Shown here: positions 8,787 to 57,768 of the stretch, in pieces
How positions within the stretch are numbered: position 1 is the stretch's first letter
How the letters are laid out: every line of letters starts with the position of its first letter
Source of the DNA: a virus
Taxonomy: Duplodnaviria > Caudoviricetes
Strand: one strand, 5' to 3'
DNA: 64,000 bases
IMG/VR virus record: IMGVR_UViG_3300020477_000013
Coordinates: 137,586 to 201,585 of that record
Made by a program: the position numbers and the translations under genes
The notes under the pieces: generated by a model
What the model saw: only the letters and a program-made list of their open reading frames with translations
The model's database searches: none
What the model was told of the DNA's origin: nothing

Positions 8787-8942
8787 ATGTCTGACACAGT
8801 AGTTGCATCATTAATAATTTTAGGATTCACTGTCACGGGTATATTTTTAGGTGCATGGTTTGCCGCACGGGGGTTCGAGAAATCGCTTATTCAAATGATG
8901 GATGATCCTGATGCACCGTGGAACAAGGAGGATGAAGAGTGA
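8787..8942 (+). CDS. Small membrane protein (51 aa)
   Basis: Own translation MSDTVVASLIILGFTVTGIFLGAWF...; overlaps next GTG. Confidence 0.6.
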   Translation: MSDTVVASLIILGFTVTGIFLGAWFAARGFEKSLIQMMDDPDAPWNKEDEE

Positions 8943-9313
8943 GAATTACAAAGAAGCAGCTAAGGCAAGTCATTCGTGAAGCAGTCGAAGAAAATGAGCT
9001 GCTCGGCCTTACGGGCCCATGGCATGAAGTCGTAGCTGCATACATAGCTCGTGGTCCCGGTAATGGGAGTCAGTCTGCAACAAATATGGTGCTTAATAAG
9101 TTACACATGGGCCCGGATCTATGGCGTATGCAAGAGGATGTTTTAGAGGACATGCTTATTGAGCTTGGGCCAAATGCCACCCCTGAACAAATTGATGCGG
9201 TGAGTATTGAATTTCGCGATGGCGTTCGTGCCAATAAGTGGATGCCTCAAACCAAGGAAGAAATGGAGGCTGATTGGGCCCGCGGCGGAAAGCCTCGTGC
9301 GGATTACAGTTAG
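8939..9313 (+). CDS. Leader-family protein (MRITKKQLRQVIRE)
   Basis: Shared N-terminal leader, RBS GGAGG. Confidence 0.8.
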   Translation: MRITKKQLRQVIREAVEENELLGLTGPWHEVVAAYIARGPGNGSQSATNMVLNKLHMGPDLWRMQEDVLEDMLIELGPNATPEQIDAVSIEFRDGVRANKWMPQTKEEMEADWARGGKPRADYS

Positions 9314-9321
9314 GGTGTTAG

Positions 9322-9567
9322 ATGAAAATTACACGTAGCCAACTTAGAAGAATCATCCGAGAAGCGATATTGCTAGAAGACAAAGAGGGAAAAGGAAAAT
9401 GCCCTGATGATGGTTGTGTTCAAAAGCGCTCGAAGGGCTGGGTTATTATCTCTAACAAGACCGGAGAATGCTGGGGCAGAAGTAAGAAGCAGGGAGGCGA
9501 GTGTACATATTATGGCTCAAGGGAAAAAGCTGAAGCAGCGCTTGGCGCTTATCATGCAGGTGGGTAA
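9322..9567 (+). CDS. Leader-family protein, Cys-containing cargo
   Basis: MKITRSQLRRIIRE; four Cys. Confidence 0.8.
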   Translation: MKITRSQLRRIIREAILLEDKEGKGKCPDDGCVQKRSKGWVIISNKTGECWGRSKKQGGECTYYGSREKAEAALGAYHAGG

Positions 9568-9816
9568 ATGAAGATGTCTGGCAAACAGTTGAGAAAGATT
9601 ATTCGAGAGACGTTATCATTGGACCTTGAGGTTGGTGACGTAATTCTAACAGGCCGATTCAAGAATAAGCGCACTGTCGTTAGGGAACTAGGGACTGATG
9701 ATCTAGGTCAACCAACCGTTAACGGGATGAAGGTCTTATCTTTTCGCATTGAAAAACTGATGCCAAAAAGTAAGTGGAGTAAGAAGACACTGGAAGAGAT
9801 AGGGGAAGACGAATGA
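9568..9816 (+). CDS. Leader-family protein
   Basis: MKMSGKQLRKIIRE. Confidence 0.8.
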   Translation: MKMSGKQLRKIIRETLSLDLEVGDVILTGRFKNKRTVVRELGTDDLGQPTVNGMKVLSFRIEKLMPKSKWSKKTLEEIGEDE

Positions 9817-10100
9817 GAATAGGGTTATCAAATTTGAGAATGTTGATTAGAGAGGCATTGGAGGTGTCTGATGAAGAGATTAGGGCATTTCTTTCTGACC
9901 AGGCTGCAACTTACCATCAGGACCACAGTCTAGACATTGATGGTGATGAAATTCCGGATGCATCCGCTATTCGTGAACTACTGCAGGCCGATTTTCTAAA
10001 TAACTTTAGTCATATCTCAATTAGCGATTATGCTGATCTTATTGACAGGTTATCTGTGATGCCTGACGTCAAGTGGTCACGCCCTGTGATGATGGTGTAG
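9813..10100 (+). CDS. Leader-family protein (divergent leader)
   Basis: MRIGLSNLRMLIRE. Confidence 0.75.
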   Translation: MRIGLSNLRMLIREALEVSDEEIRAFLSDQAATYHQDHSLDIDGDEIPDASAIRELLQADFLNNFSHISISDYADLIDRLSVMPDVKWSRPVMMV

Positions 10101-10107
10101 GTTATAG

Positions 10108-10404
10108 ATGTGGCCGAAGGGGTATCAACTTAAATGGTTTCGAAGGGAACTTCCAAGAAAAGAAGGTCCTGCCCCGCCTATGAGACCCGGTTTCGGCCAA
10201 ACACCCCTTAACGTAATACAGGATGGTGATAAATTTTACGTTGGGACCTACTTTGTTTTACCTGATGGGTCTAGGAAACCATATACAGTTGAGAGTCAAT
10301 ATTTCTCCACGGAGAAAGAAGCCAAAGTTGTATTGTCAAGAATGACAGGCGGAAAAATGAAGGAGTCACTACTGCGTGCTTATGTAAGAGAGATGCTGGG
10401 CTAA
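10108..10404 (+). CDS. Hypothetical protein
   Basis: 98 aa; ends with leader-like MKESLLRAYVRE. Confidence 0.65.
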   Translation: MWPKGYQLKWFRRELPRKEGPAPPMRPGFGQTPLNVIQDGDKFYVGTYFVLPDGSRKPYTVESQYFSTEKEAKVVLSRMTGGKMKESLLRAYVREMLG

Positions 10405-11562
10405 ATGAGTAATGATAAAATATCTGCATTTTACATAATGACAGAACCTGAGAAGATGGGTTACCCATATATTGAATCGATCACCTCTGTGCTGTCTTTT
10501 GCCGACGAGGTGGTTCTGGTGATGGGTAGAGATGAACCGGCTAGCGAGAAAAAGATTGACCAGTTGGCACGTTCTATTCCTCGGCAAAAGTCAGTTAAAA
10601 TAGTGAAGACCCATGCTTGGCCAGAATTCGGATGGAACTATAATATAATGAGAGATCATATTCAACGCGGTTTGGACGAGTGTACACATGACTTATGTTT
10701 AAAGGTGGATTGTGACTATGTCTTTAGAGATCAGCATTGTGATGAGATCCGTTCAGCAATTCAAATTCATGCACAGGATAATCATTTAGTAACCTTTGGC
10801 AGGGTCAATTTTTCATGTTTAGGAAAAGCAGATTATCAACCAGCGATAGATCACACGCCTTGTTACGTTATTAATAAACGTGCATTGAGAGATGATGGCA
10901 TAGAGTGTGCTATATCCAATGAGTCGGGATCGAACCAACCTATTTTCATGAAAGACGAAAGGGTCCTAGATGTGTCTTCCGGTAAGGACCTCAAGGTGCT
11001 ACCCCTAAGTCCTATGTTACCAGATAGCCTAGAATCCTGGGTTTATCATTACCTTGTGATATGTCCAGTAAATTATTCATACACTTTCATGACTGCATCA
11101 AGAATTGCTAAGACGTGGTCTGAGTGGCATAGGGCTATACATCTCAGGTTTGGTAATCTCCGCATGCCGAATTTCGATTTAGATGATATGCATCAATCAA
11201 TCAAGAATTTTGCGGCTTATCATTTCCAAGCAAAGATTCCATCCCTGGGGCATTGTAGAGACTGGGATGAAATAAGGGGTATTATTTTAGGCTCCAGCGG
11301 TGATACTTTAGCGGATATGGTCAACAGGGGTATTTTACATTGTAATGACAGAGGTGAACCCCAGGTGTCAGGGGCCATGACAATGCAACTTGTAGACCAC
11401 CCTGCATGTATGAGACATGTATTACAGGGCATTTCATCCGACAAGTGGGGATTTAATAACTTTAACCTGCCTGAACCTCCCTCGAGGGGATTAACGCATG
11501 AAGGTGCGGCTGCCATATATGAGAAGTGGTTAGGGGATATTGGTAGTTACTTGAATGAATAA
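10405..11562 (+). CDS. GT-A (family 2-like) glycosyltransferase
   Basis: YPYIESITSVLSFADEVVLV start, DCD (DxD) motif. Confidence 0.65.
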   Translation: MSNDKISAFYIMTEPEKMGYPYIESITSVLSFADEVVLVMGRDEPASEKKIDQLARSIPRQKSVKIVKTHAWPEFGWNYNIMRDHIQRGLDECTHDLCLKVDCDYVFRDQHCDEIRSAIQIHAQDNHLVTFGRVNFSCLGKADYQPAIDHTPCYVINKRALRDDGIECAISNESGSNQPIFMKDERVLDVSSGKDLKVLPLSPMLPDSLESWVYHYLVICPVNYSYTFMTASRIAKTWSEWHRAIHLRFGNLRMPNFDLDDMHQSIKNFAAYHFQAKIPSLGHCRDWDEIRGIILGSSGDTLADMVNRGILHCNDRGEPQVSGAMTMQLVDHPACMRHVLQGISSDKWGFNNFNLPEPPSRGLTHEGAAAIYEKWLGDIGSYLNE

Positions 11563-11684
11563 ATAAACCCCCCCGCAACAACCGGGATTTTAATTCATTT
11601 TTAAGTGTCCCTTATCGGTTGCATGTGATATTTATTTGCAGAATTGAATTATGGTATTCATATGATATCATCTAGGGGTTTAAA

Positions 11685-11792
11685 ATGAGTGAATTTTTAT
11701 GGGGCTTTGTTGCGGGTGCGGTTGCTTCTCCTTTTGCATGGGAAGGCCTTAAGTGGTGCTTCCGAAAGGTGAAGGAAGCCACTAGTAAATAA
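11685..11792 (+). CDS. Small membrane peptide (35 aa)
   Basis: Own translation MSEFLWGFVAGAVASPFAWEGLKW...; RBS AGGGG. Confidence 0.55.
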   Translation: MSEFLWGFVAGAVASPFAWEGLKWCFRKVKEATSK

Positions 11793-11858
11793 GTGGTATT
11801 ATATTAAAATTTGCGTTAGCGTGGGATAATTGGTCTGGGCCCACGAGGGGAAAATAAA

Positions 11859-12119
11859 ATGAGACTATCAAAAAATCAATTAAGACAAATCATTCGAGAA
11901 TCGCATAGTGAGTCGATGTCGGGTGTGAATAGTCAGGTTAGAGAGTCACTCAGCTCTCACGAAGAAAAAGCTCAGGCGGACTCCTTCGCCATGTTTCCCG
12001 GTAACACTATCATGGACTTGGAATCACTTCACGACTTGTGGTATGGTCGCTTTACAAGTGATGAAAACTTGATACTTGACCAGGCAATTGCACTTTTGAA
12101 CAGGGAGCTCAGGGGGTAA
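11859..12119 (+). CDS. Leader-family protein
   Basis: MRLSKNQLRQIIRE. Confidence 0.8.
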   Translation: MRLSKNQLRQIIRESHSESMSGVNSQVRESLSSHEEKAQADSFAMFPGNTIMDLESLHDLWYGRFTSDENLILDQAIALLNRELRG

Positions 12120-12121
12120 TA

Positions 12122-12403
12122 ATGCAAATATCACGTAAGAAGTTAAGAAGAATCATTAGGGAATCGTTGCTTCAAGAGTACGGTCCTGAATCTCGTGGGG
12201 AGCCCGGGCACAGAGGTGCAGATGGAAACTGGGTCGATCCTGGCATGGATGGTTACAATCCATACAAGGACAAGTCTCTGGCACCTGGTAACGGTTGGCC
12301 CCCTGAAGAGAGATCGGCAGCTATTAGAGCGTATACAGGCAGAGATGGTTACATTGCCAACTCTCAAGTGGACAAAAGCTGGGTGCATCCAGCATTTCGA
12401 TAA
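12122..12403 (+). CDS. Leader-family protein
   Basis: MQISRKKLRRIIRE. Confidence 0.8.
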   Translation: MQISRKKLRRIIRESLLQEYGPESRGEPGHRGADGNWVDPGMDGYNPYKDKSLAPGNGWPPEERSAAIRAYTGRDGYIANSQVDKSWVHPAFR

Positions 12404-12414
12404 GAGATAAACTA

Positions 12415-12777
12415 GTGAAAATCACAAAACGACAACTCAGACGAATTATTCGGGAATCAATCACGGGCACGACAATTTATGTCGAGAAGAGTCCATACGG
12501 TGGGACTATGATTGAAGATGAGAATGGCGAATATCTTTCTGTGGGAGAGATGGTAAAATCCTTATTAGACTCAGGTGAATCAGACTTCTTTCACGATGCT
12601 TTAGGGCTACAGGAACTCATGGCAGCCCATAGCCGTGGTGTTCAGGGTGGTATGCAGAAGTGGGACTCTGATGTGTTCGAACAATACTACAGCCTAGACA
12701 TGGATAAAATGATTGACACATATGCCGGTGCTAATGGATTACAAGTCAAATACATCCCCATGGGAGAGGATTACTAA
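12415..12777 (+). CDS. Leader-family protein
   Basis: GTG start, MKITKRQLRRIIRE. Confidence 0.82.
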   Translation: MKITKRQLRRIIRESITGTTIYVEKSPYGGTMIEDENGEYLSVGEMVKSLLDSGESDFFHDALGLQELMAAHSRGVQGGMQKWDSDVFEQYYSLDMDKMIDTYAGANGLQVKYIPMGEDY

Positions 12778-12778
12778 A

Positions 12779-13048
12779 ATGAAGATCACAAAAAGACAAC
12801 TTAGAAGAATCATCAAGGAAGAGAAAGCGAGGCTTCTTATAGAAATGAATCCCGCTGTTGAGGAGGGAATCTCACGTGGCGTGCAGAATGGCATTTGGGG
12901 CTGGCTCGAGCGCGAGTTTGCCCAAGACATGACCGGTGAAGATGTGTGGAATAATCCTACATACACCGAGAGTATTGCACACGCATTGGAAACAATTGCC
13001 AAGGAAGTACGGACCGCAGGGACGCAAGAAGGTACGTACGGGGGGTAA
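12779..13048 (+). CDS. Leader-family protein
   Basis: Start reassigned to leader ATG 12779. Confidence 0.82.
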   Translation: MKITKRQLRRIIKEEKARLLIEMNPAVEEGISRGVQNGIWGWLEREFAQDMTGEDVWNNPTYTESIAHALETIAKEVRTAGTQEGTYGG

Positions 13049-13049
13049 A

Positions 13050-13337
13050 ATGAAGATCACAAAAAGACAGCTCAGACGAATTATCAAAGAACAACTTCAA
13101 CTTCTTAGTGAGGAGGGCTATGATAGTTATCGTGATAGTAGGCGAGAGGCTGGCTATGGTGGAACAACTTGGAAGAGTAAGCAAGACTATAGGCGTCGAA
13201 GAGCCCAACAGATAAAGTATGCAGAGGAAGTCACAGCCCAGGGAAGAGAAGATGCCCTTGCCGGCCGGCCTAAAGACGCTAGCATAGGGCACCTTGCGTA
13301 CCATGAGGCATACGACGAAGCGCTCAAGGAAGCATGA
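13050..13337 (+). CDS. Leader-family protein
   Basis: Start reassigned to leader ATG 13050. Confidence 0.82.
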   Translation: MKITKRQLRRIIKEQLQLLSEEGYDSYRDSRREAGYGGTTWKSKQDYRRRRAQQIKYAEEVTAQGREDALAGRPKDASIGHLAYHEAYDEALKEA

Positions 13338-13338
13338 T

Positions 13339-13674
13339 ATGAAGATCACAAAGAGACAACTCAGAAGAATCATCAAGGAAGAGCTTCAATCCATGACAGT
13401 TGACAAGCGAGATCAGCTTATGGATGCGCTGGAAGATAAATACGGACTCCAGGTAAGAACTACCGAAGAGTTTGGTTCTGGTCCTGGGGGCGTATGGATT
13501 GCTGCTGAGTCAGCTTCCGCACAAACGCCGGACGGCTTACCACTGTTTGACTACTACTTGGACATGGATCCATATGAATTTGGTGTACACCCGGAATTTT
13601 CAAGGTTTATTGCACCTTATGGTTTTTATGCAGAGTGGAATGATCCAGGAACATTAATGTTGTGGAGGGTGTAA
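13339..13674 (+). CDS. Leader-family protein with globular cargo (YAEWNDPGT)
   Basis: Start reassigned to leader ATG 13339. Confidence 0.82.
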   Translation: MKITKRQLRRIIKEELQSMTVDKRDQLMDALEDKYGLQVRTTEEFGSGPGGVWIAAESASAQTPDGLPLFDYYLDMDPYEFGVHPEFSRFIAPYGFYAEWNDPGTLMLWRV

Positions 13675-13675
13675 C

Positions 13676-14023
13676 ATGAGAATCACAAAGAGGCAGCTAA
13701 GAAGAATTATTAAGGAAGAAAAGGCGAAGCTGATAAGAGAGTCATTTTCGCCTGATTCTATCGCTGAGTTTGATAGGGAAATTAATTCCAATCTGGAACA
13801 GGGGAAGTTGTACCTTGACATGGGTGATACTTCGATGGCTCAGATGTACGATGATGATGCATATTCTTTAGAGGCCATTAGAGATATGGCCATTCAAGAC
13901 AGGGCAGCTGGTGAGCCTATGGGATCAAATTCACTTCGTAATTTGGTTAGCCGTTTAGACACAGCCGCACGTGAAAAGATACCAGACGACTTCTATTACT
14001 GGATAATCGGCGAGGATTATTAA
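13676..14023 (+). CDS. Leader-family protein
   Basis: MRITKRQLRRIIKEEKAKLIRE. Confidence 0.82.
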   Translation: MRITKRQLRRIIKEEKAKLIRESFSPDSIAEFDREINSNLEQGKLYLDMGDTSMAQMYDDDAYSLEAIRDMAIQDRAAGEPMGSNSLRNLVSRLDTAAREKIPDDFYYWIIGEDY

Positions 14024-14024
14024 A

Positions 14025-14483
14025 ATGAGAATCACAAAGAGGCAGCTAAGAAGAATCATTAGGGAAGCTTATTATGAAGATGCCGAAGACCGAGGATATT
14101 TTGACCATGTTGGTGGTCTCAACGCTCCTAAGCATCCTGATAATGAAGAGTATATGGCTGGGTGGGATCAATCCATCATAGATGATAAGGTCTCCGCGGA
14201 CCACAAGGCAGAGAAGGAGATGGAAAGAAGGCTCCAGCCAGCACGCGATAGAACAATGGCAACACTCGATAGATCACGTCAGGAACTGGAGAGTGCCCAT
14301 GGAATCACTGACGACTTGGCCTACGAAGTTGAGATGGGAAGTCTCTTTCTGGCTAAGGAAGATGAGCTCCGTAAGCTGGCCAATGCAAGTGGTGCCCAAG
14401 GCCTAGCCGCTAAAAAGTTATTGGACATGACCCCCCAGCAACGTGCTGCATATAAAAGTTTAATGATTAGGACAACGATGTAG
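14025..14483 (+). CDS. Leader-family protein
   Basis: MRITKRQLRRIIRE. Confidence 0.82.
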   Translation: MRITKRQLRRIIREAYYEDAEDRGYFDHVGGLNAPKHPDNEEYMAGWDQSIIDDKVSADHKAEKEMERRLQPARDRTMATLDRSRQELESAHGITDDLAYEVEMGSLFLAKEDELRKLANASGAQGLAAKKLLDMTPQQRAAYKSLMIRTTM

Positions 14484-14502
14484 GTCGTAAATAAGATATT
14501 AC

Positions 14503-14763
14503 ATGAAAATCACTAAGAGACAACTAAGAAGAATCATCAAGGAAGAGAAGGCTAAGCTTCTTAATGAGTATACGCCTGCCGATACCAGCGGGTCAGCTCC
14601 TTATTCTAGCCCTGCAAACATTGAAGAAGAAATAGCAGAACTCGAAAATGCTCTTAACTCTCTATACGTCGCAGGCAGAGCACTTCCTTTTCCGATGGAT
14701 AGAAGAATCATGGATGCTACCGAGATGATCGAGAGGGCGCTCAATATATTACAAGGAAAGTAA
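14503..14763 (+). CDS. Leader-family protein
   Basis: MKITKRQLRRIIKEEKAKLLNE. Confidence 0.82.
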   Translation: MKITKRQLRRIIKEEKAKLLNEYTPADTSGSAPYSSPANIEEEIAELENALNSLYVAGRALPFPMDRRIMDATEMIERALNILQGK

Positions 14764-14764
14764 A

Positions 14765-15037
14765 ATGAAGATCACAAAGAGACAACTAAGAAGAATCATC
14801 AAAGAAGAGAAGGCCAGGCTCATGAATGAACAACCTACTCGCCGGCCTGACTATAAGTTTAATCAGGGCGTACAGGGTGAATATGCTCCCGGTGAATCAG
14901 TACTTGAGGATTTGATGGTCGCGGTTGACGAAGCTATTGCCAACGCCACGGGTCAGATCGATCTAGATTTTCAAGATGGTCCGCTATCGTCTAGACAAGT
15001 TGTCAATTTTGTTATTCGATCGTTACAGGAAAGATAA
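14765..15037 (+). CDS. Leader-family protein
   Basis: MKITKRQLRRIIKEEKARLMNE. Confidence 0.82.
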   Translation: MKITKRQLRRIIKEEKARLMNEQPTRRPDYKFNQGVQGEYAPGESVLEDLMVAVDEAIANATGQIDLDFQDGPLSSRQVVNFVIRSLQER

Positions 15038-15038
15038 A

Positions 15039-15428
15039 ATGAAAATCACCAAACGACAACTTAGAAGAATCATCAAAGAAGAGAAGGCCAGGCTCATGTC
15101 CGAAGCCGACACTGGAATGCGACCAGGGCCAGATGGCATTATCGTCGTCGATCGTGGAAATATGGGGAGAGAAAAAGATCGTTGGCTGGTACTGTTTGAG
15201 GTGGAAGATATTGTATCCCCCGAGCTATACACTTATCTCTCGCAAAGAAGCGATTGGAGAAAACTAACATCTGGCCCTAAGGCAACAGGCCCGACCGAAG
15301 AGGCAGCCCGGGCCAAGCTCAACAAGGCTATTGATAAGTTTCTGGCAATGCTATCTCAGAAAATCATTGAAGCACGAAACGAGGTCGGCATGCTGGACGA
15401 ATTCAGGGCAAGCTTGGAGAAACTATAA
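15039..15428 (+). CDS. Leader-family protein
   Basis: Start reassigned to leader ATG 15039. Confidence 0.82.
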   Translation: MKITKRQLRRIIKEEKARLMSEADTGMRPGPDGIIVVDRGNMGREKDRWLVLFEVEDIVSPELYTYLSQRSDWRKLTSGPKATGPTEEAARAKLNKAIDKFLAMLSQKIIEARNEVGMLDEFRASLEKL

Positions 15429-15429
15429 A

Positions 15430-15714
15430 ATGAAAATCACAAAACGACAACTTCGAAGAATCATCAAAGAAGAGAAGGCCAGGCTTCTATCTGAGGTGAC
15501 CCCCGGTGAACGTGATGATGCTAAGAGGCTTGATGCAGAGTGGGCAGCAAGGGTAAATGCAGAGCAAGGTGCCCTCCAATCTCAAGCTGATATCTCACGT
15601 GAGTTAGGCGAATTACATAATGCTATCGATCGATTGATTGACGTGATGGGCCGTGATGAAGTAGCCGCTGAGCTTGAGGGAATCGCAGAAGAGATTAGGA
15701 TGGGAATGGTATGA
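15430..15714 (+). CDS. Leader-family protein
   Basis: Start reassigned to leader ATG 15430. Confidence 0.82.
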   Translation: MKITKRQLRRIIKEEKARLLSEVTPGERDDAKRLDAEWAARVNAEQGALQSQADISRELGELHNAIDRLIDVMGRDEVAAELEGIAEEIRMGMV

Positions 15715-17366
15715 AAATCACAAAAAGACAACTCAGGCGAATCATCAAAGAAGAGAAGGCCAGGCTCATGGAGTATGGTGGCCGACCTTATGACCCAACT
15801 GTTCCTGGAGACTACGAGCGATATCGTGATAATCCGACCGGCGACGCGCCTCCGGGTGGCGAGTGGGATGCAAAACTGGAGAAGATGGCCGATGAAGTCG
15901 GTGATCGAGCCGCCGGTGGATACGAACCATCGATGGACGGTTCTCCTGAAGCGTATGCTGACCATATCCTTGATTGGTATGCTGAAGACCCACCACCTCC
16001 GCTCGACGAGATGGAGGGTTTAGCGTTTGCACTGTCAAAGCCCTATTATAGAAAGGTGATTAAGGCCGCGGTTCTCGAGTACATCGGAATGATGACAGAA
16101 GGAAGGGCTTTACATGAGCAATACCATTCCATGTCACCAGCCGGCAAATCCTTGTCTAGATCGATTAAAGGTAAATTCATGAGGATGTACCCCGACGCCT
16201 CGGTCGGGATTGACGGTCGTGAAGGGTGGATCACAGTCAATGGTAAAAAGGCTATCAATATGTCCCAGGCTAGCGGACGCGGAATGTCAGATGAAGAAAT
16301 GATAGACAAGATGCATGCAGTATATGCCCAGTCACAAGTAGATCCCGATATCCCAACCGCCGACACGAGAATGGATACGTTTATGGAGGGAAAAATGAAA
16401 ATCTCAAAACGACAACTCAGGCGAATCATCAAAGAAGAGAAGTCGAGGGTTTTATCTGAGCGCCGAATGCAAATTGCACCACGACGAAGGCGTAGCGTTC
16501 TGTTGACAGAGCGTAGTTTACGTTACGTAGCACGCCAGGCTATCATCGATCACAACCGAGGTGTTCGAATTGATGAGAATTGGTTTAGTGACGTAGCAAA
16601 GAAGGCCAAGGCCTTTGTCGCCGATAAAGTGGAAGACGCCCAGATAATGTTTAATGACTTCAAGAAGAAGCTCCCGGGTGGTATGGCAAAGCACATATCT
16701 AAGGCGTACAAGAAAATGATCAGAGATGTCAAAGAGATGACAGACAAGGTCGATTTTGGGCTATACGATTTGAAAGCTATCGAATGGCAGCCAGATTCCA
16801 TGGAGGAGGCACTAGAGAACGGCAAGATCGTCAAGAAGTTCTTTGATGACTTTAACATCGACATGGACATCAACGATCTAATGGGTCAAGAGAATTTTGA
16901 CGCTGATACCGAGTATGATCTCAATCAAAAATTTAAGAAATCCCTAAGGGATGTTATGCAACGAACAGAGTTTTACGTGTTCACTGATACTGAGATTGAG
17001 AAAACTAAAAAGAAGATTGTCGACGCCCTAGGGGAAAAGAAAGGAAAGGCAGTTGCTGAAGAGATGGCAGAAGAGCTAGTTGCAACAATGAAAGAGTACG
17101 AAGAAGACGTGCTTAGTCGCGATTATGCTGATGAAATATCGCTGGCAGTCCGTGGGTATGCCAAGTCCTTAGCCTATGCTGCTGAGCAAGAGTGGGCAAA
17201 GAAGATGGATGAGAAAGAGCGTCGATTAGCTGGCCTAGAGCGTATGAAGATAGCTGATGCCAACGAAAAAGCAGCTTGGAAGAAGGAGGAGCGACGAAAA
17301 GATCGCGCCGCTAAGAAGAAGTACAGCACTGAGCCGGAGGACCGGACAAGGTCTAAGTGGAGCTAA
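15711..17366 (+). CDS. Large leader-family protein with second in-frame leader at 16395
   Basis: 551 aa; internal MKISKRQLRRIIKEEKSRVLSE preceded by GGAGGG. Confidence 0.85.
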   Translation: MKITKRQLRRIIKEEKARLMEYGGRPYDPTVPGDYERYRDNPTGDAPPGGEWDAKLEKMADEVGDRAAGGYEPSMDGSPEAYADHILDWYAEDPPPPLDEMEGLAFALSKPYYRKVIKAAVLEYIGMMTEGRALHEQYHSMSPAGKSLSRSIKGKFMRMYPDASVGIDGREGWITVNGKKAINMSQASGRGMSDEEMIDKMHAVYAQSQVDPDIPTADTRMDTFMEGKMKISKRQLRRIIKEEKSRVLSERRMQIAPRRRRSVLLTERSLRYVARQAIIDHNRGVRIDENWFSDVAKKAKAFVADKVEDAQIMFNDFKKKLPGGMAKHISKAYKKMIRDVKEMTDKVDFGLYDLKAIEWQPDSMEEALENGKIVKKFFDDFNIDMDINDLMGQENFDADTEYDLNQKFKKSLRDVMQRTEFYVFTDTEIEKTKKKIVDALGEKKGKAVAEEMAEELVATMKEYEEDVLSRDYADEISLAVRGYAKSLAYAAEQEWAKKMDEKERRLAGLERMKIADANEKAAWKKEERRKDRAAKKKYSTEPEDRTRSKWS

Positions 17367-17370
17367 AACA

Positions 17371-17634
17371 ATGAAAATCACCAAACGACAACTTAGAAGA
17401 ATCATCAAAGAAGAGAAGGCACGAATCCTTAGGGAGATCCGAGATGAACGATCTCCCCAGGGCCGCCAATCTGCTCGTGGTCCCGCTAGCGCCTATGATC
17501 AGGGATATGAAGCAGGCACAAGGGGCGATCGATCTGAAATGCCACTCGAGCAATACGGTACACCTTTCTACGATGCATGGATGGAAGGCTGGGATGACGG
17601 ACTAGCTTCATTCCATGGTGGCGGAAGCTACTAA
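17371..17634 (+). CDS. Leader-family protein
   Basis: Start reassigned to leader ATG 17371. Confidence 0.82.
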   Translation: MKITKRQLRRIIKEEKARILREIRDERSPQGRQSARGPASAYDQGYEAGTRGDRSEMPLEQYGTPFYDAWMEGWDDGLASFHGGGSY

Positions 17635-17681
17635 ACGAAACAGGCAATTTTAGCCAACAATATTATAAAGGAGAAATTACA

Positions 17682-17780
17682 ATGAGAAAAGTATTACATA
17701 GATTAGTAAATTTATTCAATAACTCACACTGCTGCTGCTGCTGTGGTTGCTGTCCTCACCCTGAGAAGTCTTGCTGTTAG
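17682..17780 (+). CDS. Cys-rich metallothionein-like micropeptide (32 aa, 9 Cys)
   Basis: RBS AAGGAG; MRKVLHRLVNLFNNSHCCCCCGCCPHPEKSCC. Confidence 0.7.
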   Translation: MRKVLHRLVNLFNNSHCCCCCGCCPHPEKSCC

Positions 17781-17791
17781 GGGTACATGAT

Positions 17792-18046
17792 ATGAGAGTC
17801 ACTAAGCGGCAACTAAGGCAAATCATTAGAGAAGCTCTTGAAACCGAAATGGAAGAGGGGGATGTACTTGGTGAGGAAGACCTTGAGGAGTACTGGACAC
17901 CCGGCATAGATACTTCAGGCCGGGTAGATACCAGCAGGGCAGACAAAAAGCCTACAGGCCAGGAAATGGGTTGCAAAGATCGAAGGACCGGGAAGACTGT
18001 TGAGCCGTATTGGCAACAGAGAATGGGAAAATGGGTGTGCCCATAA
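17792..18046 (+). CDS. Leader-family protein
   Basis: MRVTKRQLRQIIRE at ATG 17792. Confidence 0.8.
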   Translation: MRVTKRQLRQIIREALETEMEEGDVLGEEDLEEYWTPGIDTSGRVDTSRADKKPTGQEMGCKDRRTGKTVEPYWQQRMGKWVCP

Positions 18047-18309
18047 TGAAAATTACAAAAAGACAATTAAGAAGAATCATCAAAGAAGAGAAAGCCAAGC
18101 TCGTCTCCGAGATATCGGCTGAACGGGGTGCTAGCCTGCCTCGTACCCATATGGGCGAGACAATCACACCAGAGAGCGTCGTTGCCGACCTGTTTAATTT
18201 AGCAGCTAAGGTAGAAGCTTTAGGTGAAGATTTCTTTTCTGACAGCGACAGCTTAGCTGATTGGGCGAATAATTTTATGTCCAGACATAACGTTATGCAG
18301 GAGAGATAA
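18046..18309 (+). CDS. Leader-family protein
   Basis: Start reassigned to ATG 18046. Confidence 0.82.
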   Translation: MKITKRQLRRIIKEEKAKLVSEISAERGASLPRTHMGETITPESVVADLFNLAAKVEALGEDFFSDSDSLADWANNFMSRHNVMQER

Positions 18310-18316
18310 CATTAAA

Positions 18317-18565
18317 ATGAAAATCACGAAGCGACAACTCAGAAGAATCATCAAGGAAGAGAGGGCCAGGTTACTTAATGAAGGGCCTAACCTAGCGCTT
18401 CGTAATGCGATCATGGATACTTACGAGGGCGTGTATGGAGATCTAATCTCACAAGGTGCCGATCCATCGGTTGCACAAGATCGAGCTAGTGATGCAGTTA
18501 TGTCAGAGGTTGAAGCCTGGTTGGATGCCGTAGGAATTCCACGCACATATGTGGGATTATCATAA
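18317..18565 (+). CDS. Leader-family protein
   Basis: MKITKRQLRRIIKEERARLLNE. Confidence 0.82.
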   Translation: MKITKRQLRRIIKEERARLLNEGPNLALRNAIMDTYEGVYGDLISQGADPSVAQDRASDAVMSEVEAWLDAVGIPRTYVGLS

Positions 18566-18816
18566 TGAAAATCGCCAAACGTCAGCTAAGAAGAATCATC
18601 AAAGAAGAGAAAGCACGATTGTTGACAGAGGATAGCATTAATGCTGCAGAAGATCGACTTTTCGCCGCTATAGATGACTTTGTACAAGTGGTAGATGAGG
18701 AACTAGGGTACGATGTTCCACTTCACGTGTTACGGCGGCAGGTTGATGATGTAGTTGGCTCAGCTTTTGCACAGTTTGAAGCGGACCAAAAAGCAGAGGA
18801 TGACTTAAGATCATGA
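18565..18816 (+). CDS. Leader-family protein
   Basis: MKIAKRQLRRIIKEEKARLLTE. Confidence 0.82.
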   Translation: MKIAKRQLRRIIKEEKARLLTEDSINAAEDRLFAAIDDFVQVVDEELGYDVPLHVLRRQVDDVVGSAFAQFEADQKAEDDLRS

Positions 18817-19175
18817 GAATCACAAAACGACAACTCAGACGAATCATTAAAGAAGCCATGGAAGATGAGCCCATCCGCATGATACCAGGTGATTCATTCC
18901 CTGCAGATGCGCTTAAATCAAGGCGCTCCAGGAAACCCCAACCCTCCGGCGAATTCAGAGACACAATCGTTATGAGTCCAACCGGCGATACTCTCCTAGT
19001 CGGTGGGCAGGAAGTGGCTCTTCAAAATGCTGTAAAAGAACTCGAGATACAGTCAGGTCAGCCAGTGTCGGCCATACAAGCAGGTGATATCAACGCGAAG
19101 CTATTAAGACAGTATGGTCAAGGATACGTTGAGCTTCCAATATCTTGGTCGCCCAATACAGGATGGAAATTCTAA
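18813..19175 (+). CDS. Leader-family protein
   Basis: MRITKRQLRRIIKEA. Confidence 0.82.
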   Translation: MRITKRQLRRIIKEAMEDEPIRMIPGDSFPADALKSRRSRKPQPSGEFRDTIVMSPTGDTLLVGGQEVALQNAVKELEIQSGQPVSAIQAGDINAKLLRQYGQGYVELPISWSPNTGWKF

Positions 19176-19432
19176 TGAAAATCACGAAAAGACAGTTAAA
19201 GCAGATCATCAAAGAAGAGAAGGCAAAGCTCAATGAAGGTGGATGGAGTAAGGGTCCAGAGCGCCTTAGGGAGATTAGGGAAGGAATGCTAGAGGCCTTA
19301 TTCCAGTCCATCGATGCTCAAGCCTCTTATGATCCAGAAGCCCTGGGAATTATTAAGTCTGAAATAATGATGCGAGGCCTAGATTTTAGAAAAGAGGCAC
19401 TGGCTTACTTACGAGAACTAGAGGGTTATTAA
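19175..19432 (+). CDS. Leader-family protein
   Basis: Start reassigned to ATG 19175. Confidence 0.82.
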   Translation: MKITKRQLKQIIKEEKAKLNEGGWSKGPERLREIREGMLEALFQSIDAQASYDPEALGIIKSEIMMRGLDFRKEALAYLRELEGY

Positions 19433-19433
19433 A

Positions 19434-19748
19434 ATGAAAATTACAAAGAGACAGCTTAGAAGAATCATCAAGGAAGAGAAAGCCCGGCTTGTAAATGAGA
19501 TCCAGGCTGAGAAAGACGTCAGGCAGCTGACCCTTAATCAAGGTGAGGTTGATAAGGTTGAGGCCATGCGATCAGCACTGGATAGAATGTTCTTTGAGTA
19601 TCGAAAAATAAATTCAATACCCCCACAATGGCTTGATGACTCCAACGGGTTCGGTACATCCAGGTATGATAAACTAGAAGAACTGTTGATGGATGCAGGC
19701 GAAGAAATGTCAGACTTGGTACATGATATGAAGAAAGTGGGAATATAA
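19434..19748 (+). CDS. Leader-family protein
   Basis: MKITKRQLRRIIKEEKARLVNE. Confidence 0.82.
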   Translation: MKITKRQLRRIIKEEKARLVNEIQAEKDVRQLTLNQGEVDKVEAMRSALDRMFFEYRKINSIPPQWLDDSNGFGTSRYDKLEELLMDAGEEMSDLVHDMKKVGI

Positions 19749-19758
19749 GACTCAGAGT

Positions 19759-19779
19759 GAGGTTCAAAGGTTGAACCTC
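19759..19779 (+). other. Intergenic 9-bp stem hairpin
   Basis: GAGGTTCAA-AGG-TTGAACCTC, no U-tract. Confidence 0.6.
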
Positions 19780-19828
19780 GTATCATTAACAAAAAATTAT
19801 CTATATTAAAAAATGGGAGGCACCTAAA

Positions 19829-20410
19829 ATGATAGTTACAAAGAGACAATTGAGAAGAATAATCAAGGAAGAAGCACGCCGTCTAATGGAGGACAGCATT
19901 GACAGTGAGCTTGATCACCTTAAGAAAAATGTGCATGATGATATTGAGCACATTCGTGATCTAAAAGATGACATTAGGGATGATCATGAAGAAGAGCTTC
20001 GTGCGGAGAAGGCACGCAAGGATGAGTCGCGCCGGAGGACAAAGTCTAAGCTACGCAGGATTGTTCGTCGTACTATCAACGAAGAGCATGCAGACTGGGG
20101 CATGGGAAAAGATGAAGATTCACGTACACACCATGGCGAAAAAGATTATACAGGCCATAAGGGTGATCATTCAAAGACTCATCCAGGTGAATTAGACTAT
20201 GAAGATGATGCAGCTGGAAGAGCACATGATGCAATTGCTGCTATTCATGACCTGGCATCTGCAGCAGGCGTTGAGCTTGATGTTACGGCCGGGGATGCTC
20301 TTGACAGTGAGGATGCAACGATCATCGCTATGGAAGGCAGGCTCCGCCGACAGGCACTAAAGAAGCGTATTAAAAGATTGACGAGGGATGCGATCCGCCG
20401 AGGACTATAA
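19829..20410 (+). CDS. Leader-family protein, His/Asp-rich
   Basis: MIVTKRQLRRIIKEE; internal KLRRIVRRTINEE; RBS GGGAGG. Confidence 0.82.
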   Translation: MIVTKRQLRRIIKEEARRLMEDSIDSELDHLKKNVHDDIEHIRDLKDDIRDDHEEELRAEKARKDESRRRTKSKLRRIVRRTINEEHADWGMGKDEDSRTHHGEKDYTGHKGDHSKTHPGELDYEDDAAGRAHDAIAAIHDLASAAGVELDVTAGDALDSEDATIIAMEGRLRRQALKKRIKRLTRDAIRRGL

Positions 20411-20411
20411 G

Positions 20412-20654
20412 ATGAAAATCTCAAAACGACAACTAAGAAGAATTATCAAAGAAGAGAAGGCCAAGTTACTAAAAGAGGCACCGACTCCTGAATTTGGTAT
20501 ATTCGATCAGTATTACCTAGCTGATCTACTGATGGAAGAGGTCGAAAGTTTTATGGACCAGACAGGGGTGGATAGCTTCGGGCCGGCCGAGGTCGAGGAT
20601 ATGCGTAATGCAGTCATGGCGGCACTTGATACGATTGTGAAACAGGTGAGCTAA
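20412..20654 (+). CDS. Leader-family protein
   Basis: Start reassigned to ATG 20412. Confidence 0.82.
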   Translation: MKISKRQLRRIIKEEKAKLLKEAPTPEFGIFDQYYLADLLMEEVESFMDQTGVDSFGPAEVEDMRNAVMAALDTIVKQVS

Positions 20655-20674
20655 ACCTAAGTGAGGTTAAAATT

Positions 20675-21067
20675 ATGAGAATTTCAAAACAACAATTAAG
20701 AAGAATCATCAAAGAAGAGCGCATGCGAATTCTTTATGAGGAAGTTGAAGAGATGGAGATCAAGGTAGACACTAATGAACACCACTGGCCTCGTGTAGAG
20801 TGGTCGAACATTGGTGAGCTTACCGATAAGTGGGCAGACCAAGAGAGAAATGCTTGGGATAAAGGTGATACGTCTATGCTTCCGGAGAAGCCGGAAGACG
20901 TCAGCATATCCGCATGGGAAGCAGAGCATAAGGCTGCTTGGGAAGACCAGGTAGAAAATGCTGCATTAGATTTAGAGGCGGAGTTAACCACACGGATCCG
21001 CAGGCTAGCTCTTAAAACGATGCAGGAATTTACTGATTCGCTGATAGCGGGTGATTATTCTGCCTAG
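20675..21067 (+). CDS. Leader-family protein
   Basis: MRISKQQLRRIIKEE. Confidence 0.82.
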   Translation: MRISKQQLRRIIKEERMRILYEEVEEMEIKVDTNEHHWPRVEWSNIGELTDKWADQERNAWDKGDTSMLPEKPEDVSISAWEAEHKAAWEDQVENAALDLEAELTTRIRRLALKTMQEFTDSLIAGDYSA

Positions 21068-21075
21068 TTTGGTAA

Positions 21076-21921: not shown

Positions 21922-21922
21922 A

Positions 21923-22564: not shown

Positions 22565-22566
22565 TA

Positions 22567-23336: not shown

Positions 23337-23337
23337 G

Positions 23338-24260: not shown

Positions 24261-24324
24261 TTTTTTAATTAACTAGTATACTTATTCACGTAGAATTTTG
24301 CCTTTTACGAGAGGAGCCTATGTG

Positions 24325-44380: not shown

Positions 44381-44617
44381 ATGAAGAACTATATAGCCTG
44401 CGGTGTAGCAGGTCTTGTCATGGGATTTTTGGTGAGCTGGTTTGTGATGACTGTTTGGGATGGGCTTATTCCTGCTCCACCCGAGAACGTTATTATCCGG
44501 CAGGCTCTTATGAGCCATTGTCAAGATACACCTGTGAGGGTATTATCCTGCCCCGGTCGGGTAGATACGTGTGTTTGTGGAAATCTTACAGAGAAGGATC
44601 TAAAGGGTGGAAAATAA
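44381..44617 (+). CDS. Small membrane-anchored protein
   Basis: N-terminal TM, Cys-containing C-terminus. Confidence 0.6.
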   Translation: MKNYIACGVAGLVMGFLVSWFVMTVWDGLIPAPPENVIIRQALMSHCQDTPVRVLSCPGRVDTCVCGNLTEKDLKGGK

Positions 44618-46118: not shown

Positions 46119-47355
46119 TAATGATGATCGTTGGCATGGTATATCCAGGCCGTATTCTACAGAAGATGTTGTACGTTTGAGGGGATCACTTCCGGAACGT
46201 TATGTCCTTGCCGAAAGGACGTCAAAGAAACTATGGAGGCTGCTCAACGAAAAGGACTATACACATGCTATGGGTGCCGTTACAGGCAATCAAGCTATGC
46301 AGATGGTGAAGGGTGGCTTGCCGGCAATATACTGTTCGGGGTGGCAAGTTGCAGCTGATGCTAACGATTCACATGAAATGTATCCCGATCAAAGTCTTTA
46401 TGCGGTCCACAGCGTTCCCATGCTAGTCCAAAAAATAAACAATGCTTTGAGGAGAGCAGACCAGGTTGAGTGGTCCGAGAATAGCTCATCTACGTCAAGG
46501 GACTGGTTTGTACCGATCGTAGCAGATGCCGAAGCTGGGTTTGGGGGATCACTTAACGCGTTTGAATTAATGAAATCTATGATCAGGGCAGGTGCGGCGG
46601 GTGTACACTTTGAAGATCAGTTAAGCTCTGCGAAAAAGTGCGGTCATCTCGGTGGTAAGGTCTTAGTGCCAGGCAGCGAATTTATCAAAAAACTAGTTGC
46701 GGCCCGCCTGGCTGCTGACGTGATGGGAACGGACACCATATTGATAGCAAGGACTGATGCCAATAGCGCAAAACTATTAACGTCAGACATAGATCCGGAA
46801 GATAAGCCATTCATTACTTCAAGTGACAGGACGCCAGAGGGATTTTATCGAATCACCGGTGGTCTAGATCTAGCTATTTCTAGAGGGCTAAGATATGCAC
46901 CCTACGCAGACCTAATTTGGTGTGAGACTGGAAAGCCTGACTTAGAAGAAGCAAAGAGATTCGCAGATGCTATTCATGAGAAGTATCCTGGAAAACTGCT
47001 GGCGTACAATTGTTCACCGAGCTTTAACTGGAAGAAAAATCTGGATGATGAAACAATAGCAAAGTTCCAACGTGAGCTAGGGAAGATGGGTTACAAGTTT
47101 CAATTCATTACCCTGGCTGGTTTTCATAATCTCAATTACCACATGTTTCAGTTAGCTCGAAATTATGAAGAAAAAGATATGACGGCATACTCTGAATTAC
47201 AGGAGAGTGAATTTGAGGCAGAGGTTAATGGGTATACGGCAACTAAGCATCAGAGAGAAGTTGGGACCGGATACTTTGACGCGGTTGCTCAGGTGATATC
47301 AAGCGATTCATCTACGCTAGCATTAAAAGAGTCAACAGAGGCGGAGCAGTTTTAG
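46111..47355 (+). CDS. aceA: Isocitrate lyase
   Basis: [46 protein letters not shown]. Confidence 0.97.
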
Positions 47356-56095: not shown

Positions 56096-56332
56096 ATGAG
56101 GATTAATCCCGGAGATTTGGTGATTCATAAGGACGGCATGGGTGTGTGGGGAATAGGAATAGCAGTAGCTGAGGGACCTGTGTTACCTGTATCAGGAAAA
56201 CAGTGGGTAGTTATGTGGCCAGAAATGCCGGGCAGTATAGACACTGCATATGCACCTGAAAGCTTAGATTATTTTCCTGAGATATACTTGGTACCCATCA
56301 GCCCGAAGGGGACGCCATCAGCGGACAAGTGA
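56096..56332 (+). CDS. KVGDLV-family protein
   Basis: MRINPGDLVI. Confidence 0.7.
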   Translation: MRINPGDLVIHKDGMGVWGIGIAVAEGPVLPVSGKQWVVMWPEMPGSIDTAYAPESLDYFPEIYLVPISPKGTPSADK

Positions 56333-56466
56333 TTGCCATCATGACCCATGGGCAGAATACAACAATTATATTTCCTGTCACCCTTAAGTGTTGCGTTACA
56401 CTGCTGAATACAGTTGGGCGTATTTCCTAAGAGTCTTTTAATATACATGATTATTTTTTTAAGCAT
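56269..56466 (-). CDS. Small Cys/His-rich protein
   Basis: C-x3-C...CC-x-LP-x-GH-x-G-x-H; preceded by ATACTTA on minus strand. Confidence 0.55.
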   Translation of the reverse strand: MLKKIIMYIKRLLGNTPNCIQQCNATLKGDRKYNCCILPMGHDGNHLSADGVPFGLMGTKYISGK

Positions 56467-56549
56467 GTTGTTAAGTATTATATACTAGGCTTTAATCCTT
56501 TTTTGTCACCTATAGGTGATATCGTTACAACATTGAGCGGAGTAGAAAG

Positions 56550-56969
56550 ATGTCAGAACCAGCGAGTCCAGGTGTTTTACGGGTTAAAACTGAAACGTTT
56601 AAGGATATTCGTGATCTCCTTACCTCAAATCGTAAAATTCAAGCAATTAAATTGTTGCGAAGTGAACTTTCTATTTCATTGAAGGAAGCAAAATTTGCGA
56701 TAGATCGGCTTCAAGCTGAGATGGGTGGTACGGCAACAGGATTAGATTATTCCCATGCAAAGAAGCTGCTCACAGGCCCAGCTGTTCTTAACGTAACCCT
56801 TGATTACGGCGATGGCCCTGTGGAGCTGGATGTAGAGGGAATGCAGTTGCGTGCATTAACAGAACTGCAAACAATCGGGATCGAGTCTTGCAACCATATG
56901 CTTCACCTGGTTGATGTGTTTAAGGCAATTTCTGATGGTCATCAAGTATACATCCGCAAGTCATATTAG
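56550..56969 (+). CDS. Protein with ribosomal L7/L12 C-terminal-like domain
   Basis: RKIQAIKLLR...SLKEAK-x-x-ID. Confidence 0.6.
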   Translation: MSEPASPGVLRVKTETFKDIRDLLTSNRKIQAIKLLRSELSISLKEAKFAIDRLQAEMGGTATGLDYSHAKKLLTGPAVLNVTLDYGDGPVELDVEGMQLRALTELQTIGIESCNHMLHLVDVFKAISDGHQVYIRKSY

Positions 56970-57053
56970 CGATATGCTTTCTTTGTCATGCCATAAACAA
57001 ATTGGTACTTTATGCAATATTTACTTAATATTGGTAAAGGGATAATCAATATT

Positions 57054-57200
57054 ATGAGAATTACTGAATCTGAATTGAGATTATTTATTCGTCAACAGCT
57101 ATTGCTTCATGAAGAAAATCAGGTCGATGAAATTTACGAAGACGACGAAGGGCATGATGATGGCTTAGAAGAGGCAGAAGGTTCTCCTCCAGCCGGCTGA
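57054..57200 (+). CDS. Short acidic leader-family protein (possible UGA readthrough to 57206)
   Basis: MRITESELRLFIRQ; ends PPAG-UGA-ACT-TAG. Confidence 0.65.
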   Translation: MRITESELRLFIRQQLLLHEENQVDEIYEDDEGHDDGLEEAEGSPPAG

Positions 57201-57231
57201 ACTTAGACTATTTGTCGGGTCACGATAAAGC

Positions 57232-57768
57232 ATGAAAATAAAAAAATCAAAATTAAGAAGAATTATAAGTGAGCAAGTTGAAGACGCAATTGCCACTATA
57301 GAGGTGCCGAACATGTTCACCACGGCCCTTGTTCCTTACCTGGCTTCGTTAAGAGCCCTTCAGCTGTGGTTTCATTCTGCACATAACCTCACAAAGGGCA
57401 CTGGATTTGCTGGTGATCATACCGAGCTGTATGGAAAAATATACGTAGAACTGCAAGACAACTACGATGCAGCGGTAGAAAAAGCTATCGGTTTATCAGG
57501 TGATGAACAGGTCGCATGTCCTGTCCTAATTACCGGTGGCGCACTTGAGGTCTTGGGACAACATATGTCACCATCAGGTGCGTCATCCTTGGATATAGCT
57601 AAGGCAGCGCTAGGGTTACTAAATGCACACGTAGAGCTTTTGACATACACATTTTATTCGCTTGAAGATGGGGGGACTTTACCTCTAGGCTTGAATGATT
57701 TCCTAATGTCTTCTGCAAATGATTACGAGACATATATGTACATGTTGCAACAACGTGTCAAGGAATAA
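57232..57768 (+). CDS. Ferritin/Dps-like protein fused to the family leader
   Basis: MKIKKSKLRRIISE then H-x-x-H-x-x-x-x-G-x-x-F-x-x-D-H...D-x-x-x-EK ferritin-like motifs. Confidence 0.75.
   Translation: MKIKKSKLRRIISEQVEDAIATIEVPNMFTTALVPYLASLRALQLWFHSAHNLTKGTGFAGDHTELYGKIYVELQDNYDAAVEKAIGLSGDEQVACPVLITGGALEVLGQHMSPSGASSLDIAKAALGLLNAHVELLTYTFYSLEDGGTLPLGLNDFLMSSANDYETYMYMLQQRVKE

Follow-up and report, generated by a model that had tools for sequence, protein, structure and literature searches.

A conserved N-terminal tag on dozens of unrelated proteins of a marine T4-type phage resembles a capsid-targeting propeptide

Phage T4 places a short propeptide, the capsid-targeting sequence (CTS), at the N termini of several unrelated proteins (IPI, IPII, IPIII, and Alt), from which it is removed by the prohead protease gp21. 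The T4 CTS is 10 to 20 residues long and ends in (L/I)-x-E; only a small number of proteins, from few coliphages, are known to carry it. The protease gp21 cleaves after L/I-X-E, and in the 10-residue CTS, residues 4 and 7 serve targeting and residues 8 and 10 serve processing (PMC9026906), i.e., positions P7, P4, P3, and P1 relative to the cut. In the ip loci of T-even phages, which include the gene for IPI*, an inhibitor of the GmrS/GmrD restriction enzyme, diverse cargos have only the CTS in common, and related phages swap them (PMC3012670). The giant phages phiKZ, 201phi2-1, and SPN3US contain dozens of head-internal proteins that a diverged homolog of gp21 cleaves after Glu; their propeptides hold several sites each, and paralogs such as gp53 and gp54 are conserved at their N termini (PMC5694885, PMC9026906). 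The Dar system of phage P1 packages anti-restriction proteins in the head, and they accompany the DNA into the host to counter its defence (PMC9024508, PMC12810830). The PeSL cassettes of T4-type phages are repeats at gene starts linked to modular shuffling of accessory genes (PMC2839356). We analyzed a 64,000-nucleotide stretch (the window) of the genome of an uncultured marine phage, IMGVR_UViG_3300020477_000013, in which a short N-terminal tag heads dozens of otherwise unrelated genes. The window is the final 64 kb (positions 137586 to 201585, numbered here 1 to 64,000) of a single 201,585-bp contig, and positions given on the numbering of the whole contig are marked "genome." The tag is probably a CTS-like propeptide that the phage's own head protease would remove.

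The tag consists of 14 residues, MKITKRQLRRIIKE, and is frequently extended by EKARLLxE, so that its total length is 14 to 22 residues. Searching the six-frame translation of the window with the regular expression [LI][RKG].[IVLM]I[RK]E returned 34 matches to the core motif L-R-x-I-I-K/R-E, exclusively on the + strand and all exactly 7 codons downstream of an ATG, GTG, or TTG. By chance, 0.33 matches are expected from 100 mononucleotide shuffles (maximum, 3) and 0.13 from residue shuffles. The matches are located at 8939-10100 (n = 4), 11859-23583 (n = 29, i.e., 28 genes and 1 internal copy at 16395), and 29996 (n = 1). Six further canonical tags lie outside the window (genome 83243, 83482, 83769, 87602, 109447, and 120452) and complete the set of 40 leaders used for column statistics, and a second 14-residue tag type, MKLLREYIRSLLxE, is found at genome 82419-87473 and 89017. 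In total, the genome carries approximately 40 canonical copies, or 50 to 60 if variants are counted. An initial annotation of the window had proposed about 36 proteins with a shared N-terminal leader, 28 of them encoded in 11859-23583, and both figures are right for the window (34 matches plus variants). The leaders that it placed at 23580, 57054, and 57232 are present in degenerate or variant form (Table 1), and the EKARL(L/M)xE extension that it called frequent occurs, with Glu at residue 22 (E22), in about half of the leaders (21/40).

The tag has a net charge of approximately +5 over 14 residues and is thus strongly basic. No known domain was detected in it with Pfam or PHROGs, a tblastn search with a 24-aa leader gave one weak match, in an uncultured 484-kb phage, and a megablast search of the tag array against 50,697 phage records gave no match. 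Our literature searches found the leader sequence in no paper and a description of large CTS arrays in none. A Sec or Tat signal was considered and rejected, since both a hydrophobic core and a twin-Arg context are absent.

Besides the start, the only invariant columns of the tag are P7, P3, and P1 of an I-x-E site: L8 (P7), I12 (P3), and E14 (P1) are each found in 40 of 40 leaders, and P4 is I11 in 34 of 40 and L, V, or M in the others. A second L-x-E, ending at E22, appears as a sequence pattern in about half of the leaders. Both the 14-residue length and the P7/P4/P3/P1 pattern recur in the second tag type. With the T4 CTS (MKTYQEFIAE), the tag shares only the initial M-K-x-T and the spacing of hydrophobic residues and Glu, a resemblance in pattern that is too short for a significance test. 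The contig is the genome of a myovirus with a T4-type head module (Table 1) and encodes two tail-sheath paralogs. The initial annotation had suggested looking for a prohead protease, and we found one of the gp21 family (S77), which aligns with T4 gp21 (PDB 5JBL; E = 1.9e-16) and has the catalytic His (in ECDHP) and Ser (in GISSRG) in place, both invariant across 26 relatives. The 140-aa protein encoded directly downstream of the protease begins with MSKISKSKLKTLIKE, followed, past the proposed cut, by CLVEILTE. This protein has a tag-like P7/P4/P3/P1 pattern and a second L-x-E at the same 8-residue spacing, and 72 related head modules retain it. Among proteins outside the tagged family, it scores best with the leader hidden Markov model (HMM; 7.5 bits). 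In relatives, the N terminus of the scaffold reads ...EAIAE followed by A, with a putative cut between them, and the capsid protein keeps LLE/N and VLRE/A or S within approximately 6 residues of the aligned mature N terminus of T4 gp23*.

The tag is also retained within proteins. The 551-aa open reading frame (ORF) at 15711-17366 contains an intact internal tag from residue 229, and its first module ends in a leader-like junction (...VLEYIGMMTE). Residues 133 to 201 of this ORF correspond to a stand-alone 90-aa tagged gene in a related stretch (L090), and in another (L038) the MMTE of this first module leads into a different module, whose homolog is the C-terminal part of the gene at 21923. 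A 1114-aa ORF (genome 78300-81644) carries three clear motifs of the second tag type and one weaker match, all between modules. Searching the library with a tag profile revealed many proteins with two or three tags, and several internal tags of database proteins have lost the Met and retained K.Q..R.I.KEE. The idea that multi-tag database proteins are artefacts of gene calling with code 4 was rejected, as the two that we checked translate under table 11. Internal leaders devoid of Met connect modules in real fusion proteins, and a tag kept in mid-protein fits a processing or targeting element and not a gene start.

Purifying selection on the tag is strong and acts at the peptide level, because L8, I12, and E14 are fixed while their codons vary (five codons at L8 and three at I12) and half of the leader codon differences are synonymous. 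The initial annotation had read the synonymous variation of the leaders in this way, and the counts agree with it: 3394 synonymous versus 3059 nonsynonymous differences in the leader (53% synonymous), compared with 461 versus 10196 in codons 25 to 38 (4%). At the DNA level, conservation spans a weak Shine-Dalgarno sequence (-12 to -8) through codon 14 or 15 and then stops. The accompanying suggestion that the leader DNA serves as a recombination anchor fared less well. The longest exact DNA match per leader pair has a median of 8 nt and reaches at least 20 nt in 67 of 780 pairs; on the other side, cassettes are reordered, fused, and split at leader boundaries. As a substrate for recombination, the leader DNA is poor but conceivable, and synonymous codon identity is slightly higher for neighbours (0.63) than for distant genes (0.56). 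Separately, the phage encodes tRNA-Arg(CCT), tRNA-Arg(TCT), and tRNA-Lys(TTT) (window 4246-4321 and 37534-37609; 13682-13758 in stretch L007). These tRNAs may serve the 40-plus leaders, because the leaders are rich in AGA (R9 in 29/40 and R10 in 25/40) and AAA codons.

To survey relatives, we searched IMG/VR with a degenerate DNA pattern of the tag, so that the resulting set was chosen by the motif. The pattern matched 103 stretches, from contigs of up to 293 kb, which carry 421 tagged ORFs. Together with those of this genome, 455 bodies (i.e., the proteins without their leaders) formed 208 clusters, including 135 singletons. In this motif-selected set, tag identity is approximately 80% whether or not the bodies are related, and orthologous bodies fall to 30 to 40% identity. 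A search with the tag profile (E <= 0.001) returned 7,543 representatives of 50%-identity clusters. Relatives of the protease are encoded in 517 stretches, and tag arrays occur together with this protease subclade on at least 10 large contigs. The cargo homologs originate from Tara and other marine metagenomes. The initial annotation had called for a comparison of array content, which revealed that gene order is scrambled among relatives and that cassettes are fused or split at leader boundaries; one related stretch (L058) interleaves orthologs of the genes clustered at 83 to 88 kb and genes of the window array, which lie approximately 60 kb apart here. By capsid protein, the closest cultured phages are Flavobacterium phage immuto (~49% identity), Microcystis phage Mel-JY01, and Rhodothermus phage RM378. 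A literature search on Mel-JY01 found nothing. Immuto (vB_FspM_immuto; host, Flavobacterium sp. LMO8) has five related tags, MKKSQLRQIIKE, MKKSQLREIIRKE, MKKSELVKLIKEE, MKKSQIVKAVQE (inside the head module), and MKLDLLKKLIKE; its tagged genes are at record positions 81525, 102294, 102880, 113188, and 123355. Five other immuto genes (NC_055915.1; positions 1803, 103806, 117631, 118632, and 125241) share another N terminus, MENFDLKKFLVENKL, which may be a second tag type in this cultured relative; one of them directly follows the prohead protease gene.

The cargos are small (median, approximately 90 to 105 aa). In an all-versus-all blastp comparison of the 40 bodies (residues 1 to 24 removed), no pair fell below E = 0.04 except for a nested ORF, and 25 of 34 window bodies have an isoelectric point (pI) of <=5.5, in keeping with the initial description of the bodies as dissimilar and mostly acidic. 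Pfam and PHROGs matched no family in 10 window cargos, and a Pfam search of 80 cargos from other genomes recognized a pentapeptide repeat, an RMF-like domain, and an EF-hand, one each, and nothing else. In the 1114-aa polyprotein and the genes with the second tag type, Pfam found DUF192 only. The family of the gene at 20675 includes a 56-member set in which the leader is >90% conserved and the body is 45 to 60% identical, with a variable linker between them. The AlphaFold2 model of the window member (pLDDT, 85) consists of a leader helix (residues 5 to 27), a low-confidence linker (approximately 26 to 43; pLDDT of <50 at 26 to 33), and a helical body (45 to 124). A Foldseek search of this model against PDB gave no match, and an ESM Atlas search with the cargo at 21923 gave no usable match. 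The protein encoded at 23580-24260 is found at >=60% identity in more than 120 clusters, with a variant leader and an invariant E20. Its predicted fold bears a weak resemblance to that of GNAT acetyltransferases (E = 0.01 to 0.1 against PDB; E = 2e-7 and a TM score of ~0.5 against an N-acetyltransferase cluster of the AlphaFold database), and it could be an enzyme cargo, like Alt in T4.

These observations point to a probable, much enlarged version of T4 capsid loading. Forming an amphipathic, basic helix whose P7, P4, and P3 positions are hydrophobic, the tag would bind the very acidic core of the prohead scaffold, and the cargo would be enclosed before the shell closes. The gp21-family serine protease would then cut after Glu14 (I-x-E), and after Glu22 (L-x-E) where present, freeing the cargo from the core; at internal tags, it would split polyproteins into separate cargos. 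Mature cargos would stay packaged alongside the DNA and pass into the host at infection, probably for host takeover or counter-defence. Since the tag alone is proposed to suffice for a protein to be loaded, cargo genes could be freely gained, lost, fused, split, and reordered, yielding a very large pan-repertoire. We put the probability that the tag is a T4-CTS-like propeptide cut by the S77 head protease at about 0.65. The interpretation offered in the initial annotation is supported in this part, as a CTS-like propeptide fits the protease, the invariant P7, P3, and P1 residues, the leader of the head-module protein, the sites in the scaffold and capsid protein, and the internal tags; its recombination anchor is weakly supported. 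We consider it less likely than not that the cargos also stay in the head, are ejected, and act against host defence.

Several points weigh against this interpretation. At this short length, sequence similarity of the leader to the T4 CTS does not reach significance, and the leader matches the head-module protein only weakly (E = 0.11). The (I/L)-x-E motif is short and frequent by chance, so its presence in the capsid protein and scaffold is suggestive at most. P1' is Glu in 25 of 40 cargo leaders versus C, A, or S in the head proteins. The array is preceded by TATATTAAAA, which matches neither the candidate late motif ATATTTA nor the early-type TGnTATAATATAAATG, so that these motifs do not clearly place the array among early or late genes. 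A literature search found no virion proteome of immuto or Mel-JY01. A complex prediction for the protease and leader scored 0.00 against a mark of 0.32 and carries no weight either way. Finally, the bodies are small and mostly acidic, whereas the CTS-bearing internal proteins of T4 are described as basic (PMC9026906), and such acidic proteins may leave the head together with the scaffold instead of staying beside the DNA.

In one alternative, which we consider unlikely, the tagged proteins are prohead-core fillers or assembly factors that are targeted and cleaved and are then expelled or degraded around DNA packaging, so that they are never delivered. The evidence for targeting and cleavage serves this explanation equally; the mostly acidic bodies resemble the 597-aa D/E-rich scaffold, and most cleaved core fragments of T4 exit the head (PMC9026906). 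It leaves unexplained the thousands of unrelated and rapidly turning-over cargo families, the folded and conserved bodies of the 20675 family and the GNAT-like protein, and the pentapeptide-repeat cargo. Moreover, T4 heads retain some acidic internal peptides.

Equally improbable in our judgment is a role for the tag outside the capsid, as a shared N-terminal helix that binds a common cytoplasmic partner (a chaperone, nucleic acid, the membrane, or, as a degron, a protease adaptor). The helix is strongly basic and is modelled as a separate element, the phage encodes a full DnaJ, and the evidence tying the tag to the head is indirect. However, such a partner gives no reason for the only invariant residues to make up an I-x-E site of fixed position, for a second tag type to have equal length and the same P7/P4/P3/P1 pattern, for a head-module protein beside the protease to have a two-site leader, or for a Met-less motif to be retained between polyprotein modules, and Pfam and PHROGs identify no known domain in the tag. 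A nucleic-acid cassette, in which the gene start is kept as DNA or RNA (a recombination anchor or a translation-initiation or regulatory site) with the peptide as a by-product, would suit the scrambled gene order, the fusions and splits at leader boundaries, the tight gene junctions (24 of 35), the slightly higher synonymous identity of neighbours, and the PeSL-mediated shuffling known in T4-type phages (PMC2839356), but is very improbable given that half of the leader codon differences are synonymous, that invariant residues use three to five codons, that exact matches are short, that startless internal copies are conserved, and that leaders are approximately 80% identical as protein between unrelated cargos of different genomes. 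Shuffling more plausibly follows from the shared tag than explains what the tag is for.

Across 8939-24260, genes overlap or lie no more than 2 nt apart at 24 of 35 junctions, which suggests translational coupling. Within this region, the leader gene at 22998-23336 has an in-frame TGA, situated in ...IGHT*LTH.... We checked five orthologs as DNA (that of this genome and those of L027, L082, L194, and L195) and found TGA in 5 of 5 and TGG or a Cys codon in 0 of 5; the W at this site in database proteins is an artefact of gene calling with TGA as W. Each ortholog has a 7- to 8-bp hairpin with a 3-nt loop (GUC or GGA), starting 15 to 16 nt past the U of UGA, with compensatory changes in the stem. 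No tRNA-Sec was found in the phage. The TGA with its hairpin fits a bacterial-type selenocysteine insertion sequence (SECIS) or an obligatory hairpin-dependent read-through. A genome-wide alternative genetic code was rejected, since only one gene needs read-through of TGA. The most far-reaching form of the capsid-loading proposal, in which a whole clade of abundant marine T4-type jumbo phages loads and injects thousands of tagged families, singly or as polyproteins, with a selenoprotein among the cargos, is doubtful at present.

Table 1. Positions of the head-module genes and of the tagged genes (window numbering unless marked "genome")
Feature	Position	Strand	Remarks
Large terminase	genome 25792-27396		
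Portal	genome 27459-29441		Portal_T4, 275.7 bits
Prohead protease, 200 aa	genome 30278-30880		Peptidase_S77 (PF03420), 92.7 bits (cut-off, 27)
Scaffold-like protein, 597 aa	genome 33870-35663		Very acidic, D/E-rich
gp23-type capsid protein	genome 35707-37638		Gp23, 259.3 bits
Four adjoining leader genes	8939-9313, 9322-9567, 9568-9816, 9813-10100	+	Motif 7 codons past start; unrelated bodies
Main array, 28 leader genes and one leaderless gene (21076-21921)	11859-23583	+	Leader HMM, 17-47 bits per gene
551-aa fusion, at least 3 cargo modules	15711-17366	+	Internal leader at 16395
Cargo family gene	20675-21067	+	>130 marine homologs, every one tagged
Gene with two tandem leaders	22567-23001	+	MKISKKKIQQIVAE at 22567, MKISQRQLKRMIKEE at 22651
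Leader gene with conserved in-frame TGA (23124-23126), then covarying hairpin	22998-23336	+	
226-aa protein with variant leader	23580-24260	+	...LRxxIRxxLxE20 then K; L-I-E at residues 18-20; weak GNAT-like fold
Isolated leader gene, 64 aa, acidic	29996-30190	+	Begins MKLTITELRALIRE...
240-aa protein with leader-like start	30191-30913	-	MKGLKLLRLVISE, I-S-E at residues 11-13; sequence reading only
Gene with degenerate leader, acidic body	57054-57200	+	MRITESELRLFIRQ then LLLHE; Q at position 14; HMM matches residues 1-4 only
Variant leader gene, 178 aa	57232-57768	+	MKIKKSKLRRIISE; leader HMM, 12 bits

The long ORFs (>=150 aa) of the contig are distributed as 125 on the + strand and 21 on the - strand. 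The gene at 30191-30913 is the sole tag candidate on the minus strand, and its product may be metallopeptidase-like because it contains an HExxH motif (...RHELEHSG...). Just before the first leader genes, a 124-aa protein (window 8232-8606) has a repetitive tail rich in D and Y (DYDDYDDYDDYD...); near the N terminus of this protein stands LLKVLIGE, which resembles a leader. Among possible promoters, TG(G/T)TATAATATAAATGT is repeated 23 to 63 nt upstream of gene starts (window 30959, 33018, 40312, 54491, 58409, and 62251) and looks by sequence like an extended -10 early promoter. The motif ATATTTA lies mostly 27 to 46 nt upstream of the genes for the scaffold, sheath, and other structural proteins and is a candidate late promoter; the T4 late promoter TATAAATA has only 3 copies on the + strand of the genome. 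A scan of window positions 8000 to 25000 for sigma-70 promoters and terminators gave results not above those of shuffles. Auxiliary metabolic genes are also present, including malate synthase and isocitrate lyase (glyoxylate shunt), the full DnaJ, a GMP reductase/IMPDH-family protein, and UvdE, together with PEP carboxykinase-like and cysteine synthase-like ORFs, both called from their translations; in the window, these genes span 26848-28314, 44607-47355, 650-1696, 6541-7575, 29104-29973, and 62820-63761. A PP-loop ATPase (TilS-like, PF01171; window 5795-6409) is encoded directly upstream of a tRNA with anticodon CAT (6438-6515); the two may be a lysidine synthase and the phage tRNA-Ile2 that it serves, used to read ATA codons.

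Compared with the systems described above, the principle is that of T4, and the tag, the scale, the use of polyproteins, and the clade are new. As in T4, a short propeptide ending in (L/I)-x-E, with hydrophobic residues at P7, P4, and P3, heads unrelated proteins in a phage with a gp21-family protease, a gp20-type portal, and a gp23-type capsid protein. The number of tagged genes is about 40 to 55 here versus approximately 4 in T4, and the tag differs in sequence from the T4 CTS, is strongly basic, often has a second tandem site, and serves as an internal linker of polyproteins. The T-even ip loci likewise combine diverse cargos with a common leader and differ in scale from the 208 clusters and 7,543 representatives found here, where the recognized cargos are pentapeptide-repeat, RMF-like, EF-hand, DUF192, and weakly GNAT-like proteins and an anti-defence role is only putative. 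Propeptides of the giant phages are mostly longer than 100 residues, without a single short shared tag, and have the motif S/A/G-x-E, whereas this phage has a canonical T4-type head module. P1 Dar resembles the proposed system in its head-loaded proteins that accompany the DNA; its loading is ordered and protein dependent and is not known to involve a shared cleavable N-terminal tag or gp21-type processing. PeSL cassettes are non-coding promoter/stem-loop DNA, whereas the repeat described here is coding and conserved as a peptide.

If the proposed capsid loading is correct, the tag marks approximately one-fifth of the genes of this phage, as well as thousands of protein families in marine metagenomes, as virion cargo. 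Hypothetical proteins would thereby become a defined class that is present at the onset of infection, with prime candidates for anti-defence and takeover functions. In the most far-reaching form of the proposal, the tag would also predict injected proteins and would offer a packaging handle for engineering. Both the use of polyproteins and the size of the repertoire exceed what has been described for T4, phiKZ, and SPN3US. The idea can be tested in culture, because phage immuto encodes the same protease together with five related tags. In the far-reaching form, capsid-delivered effectors would be a major and nearly unexplored arm of counter-defence and host takeover by oceanic phages.

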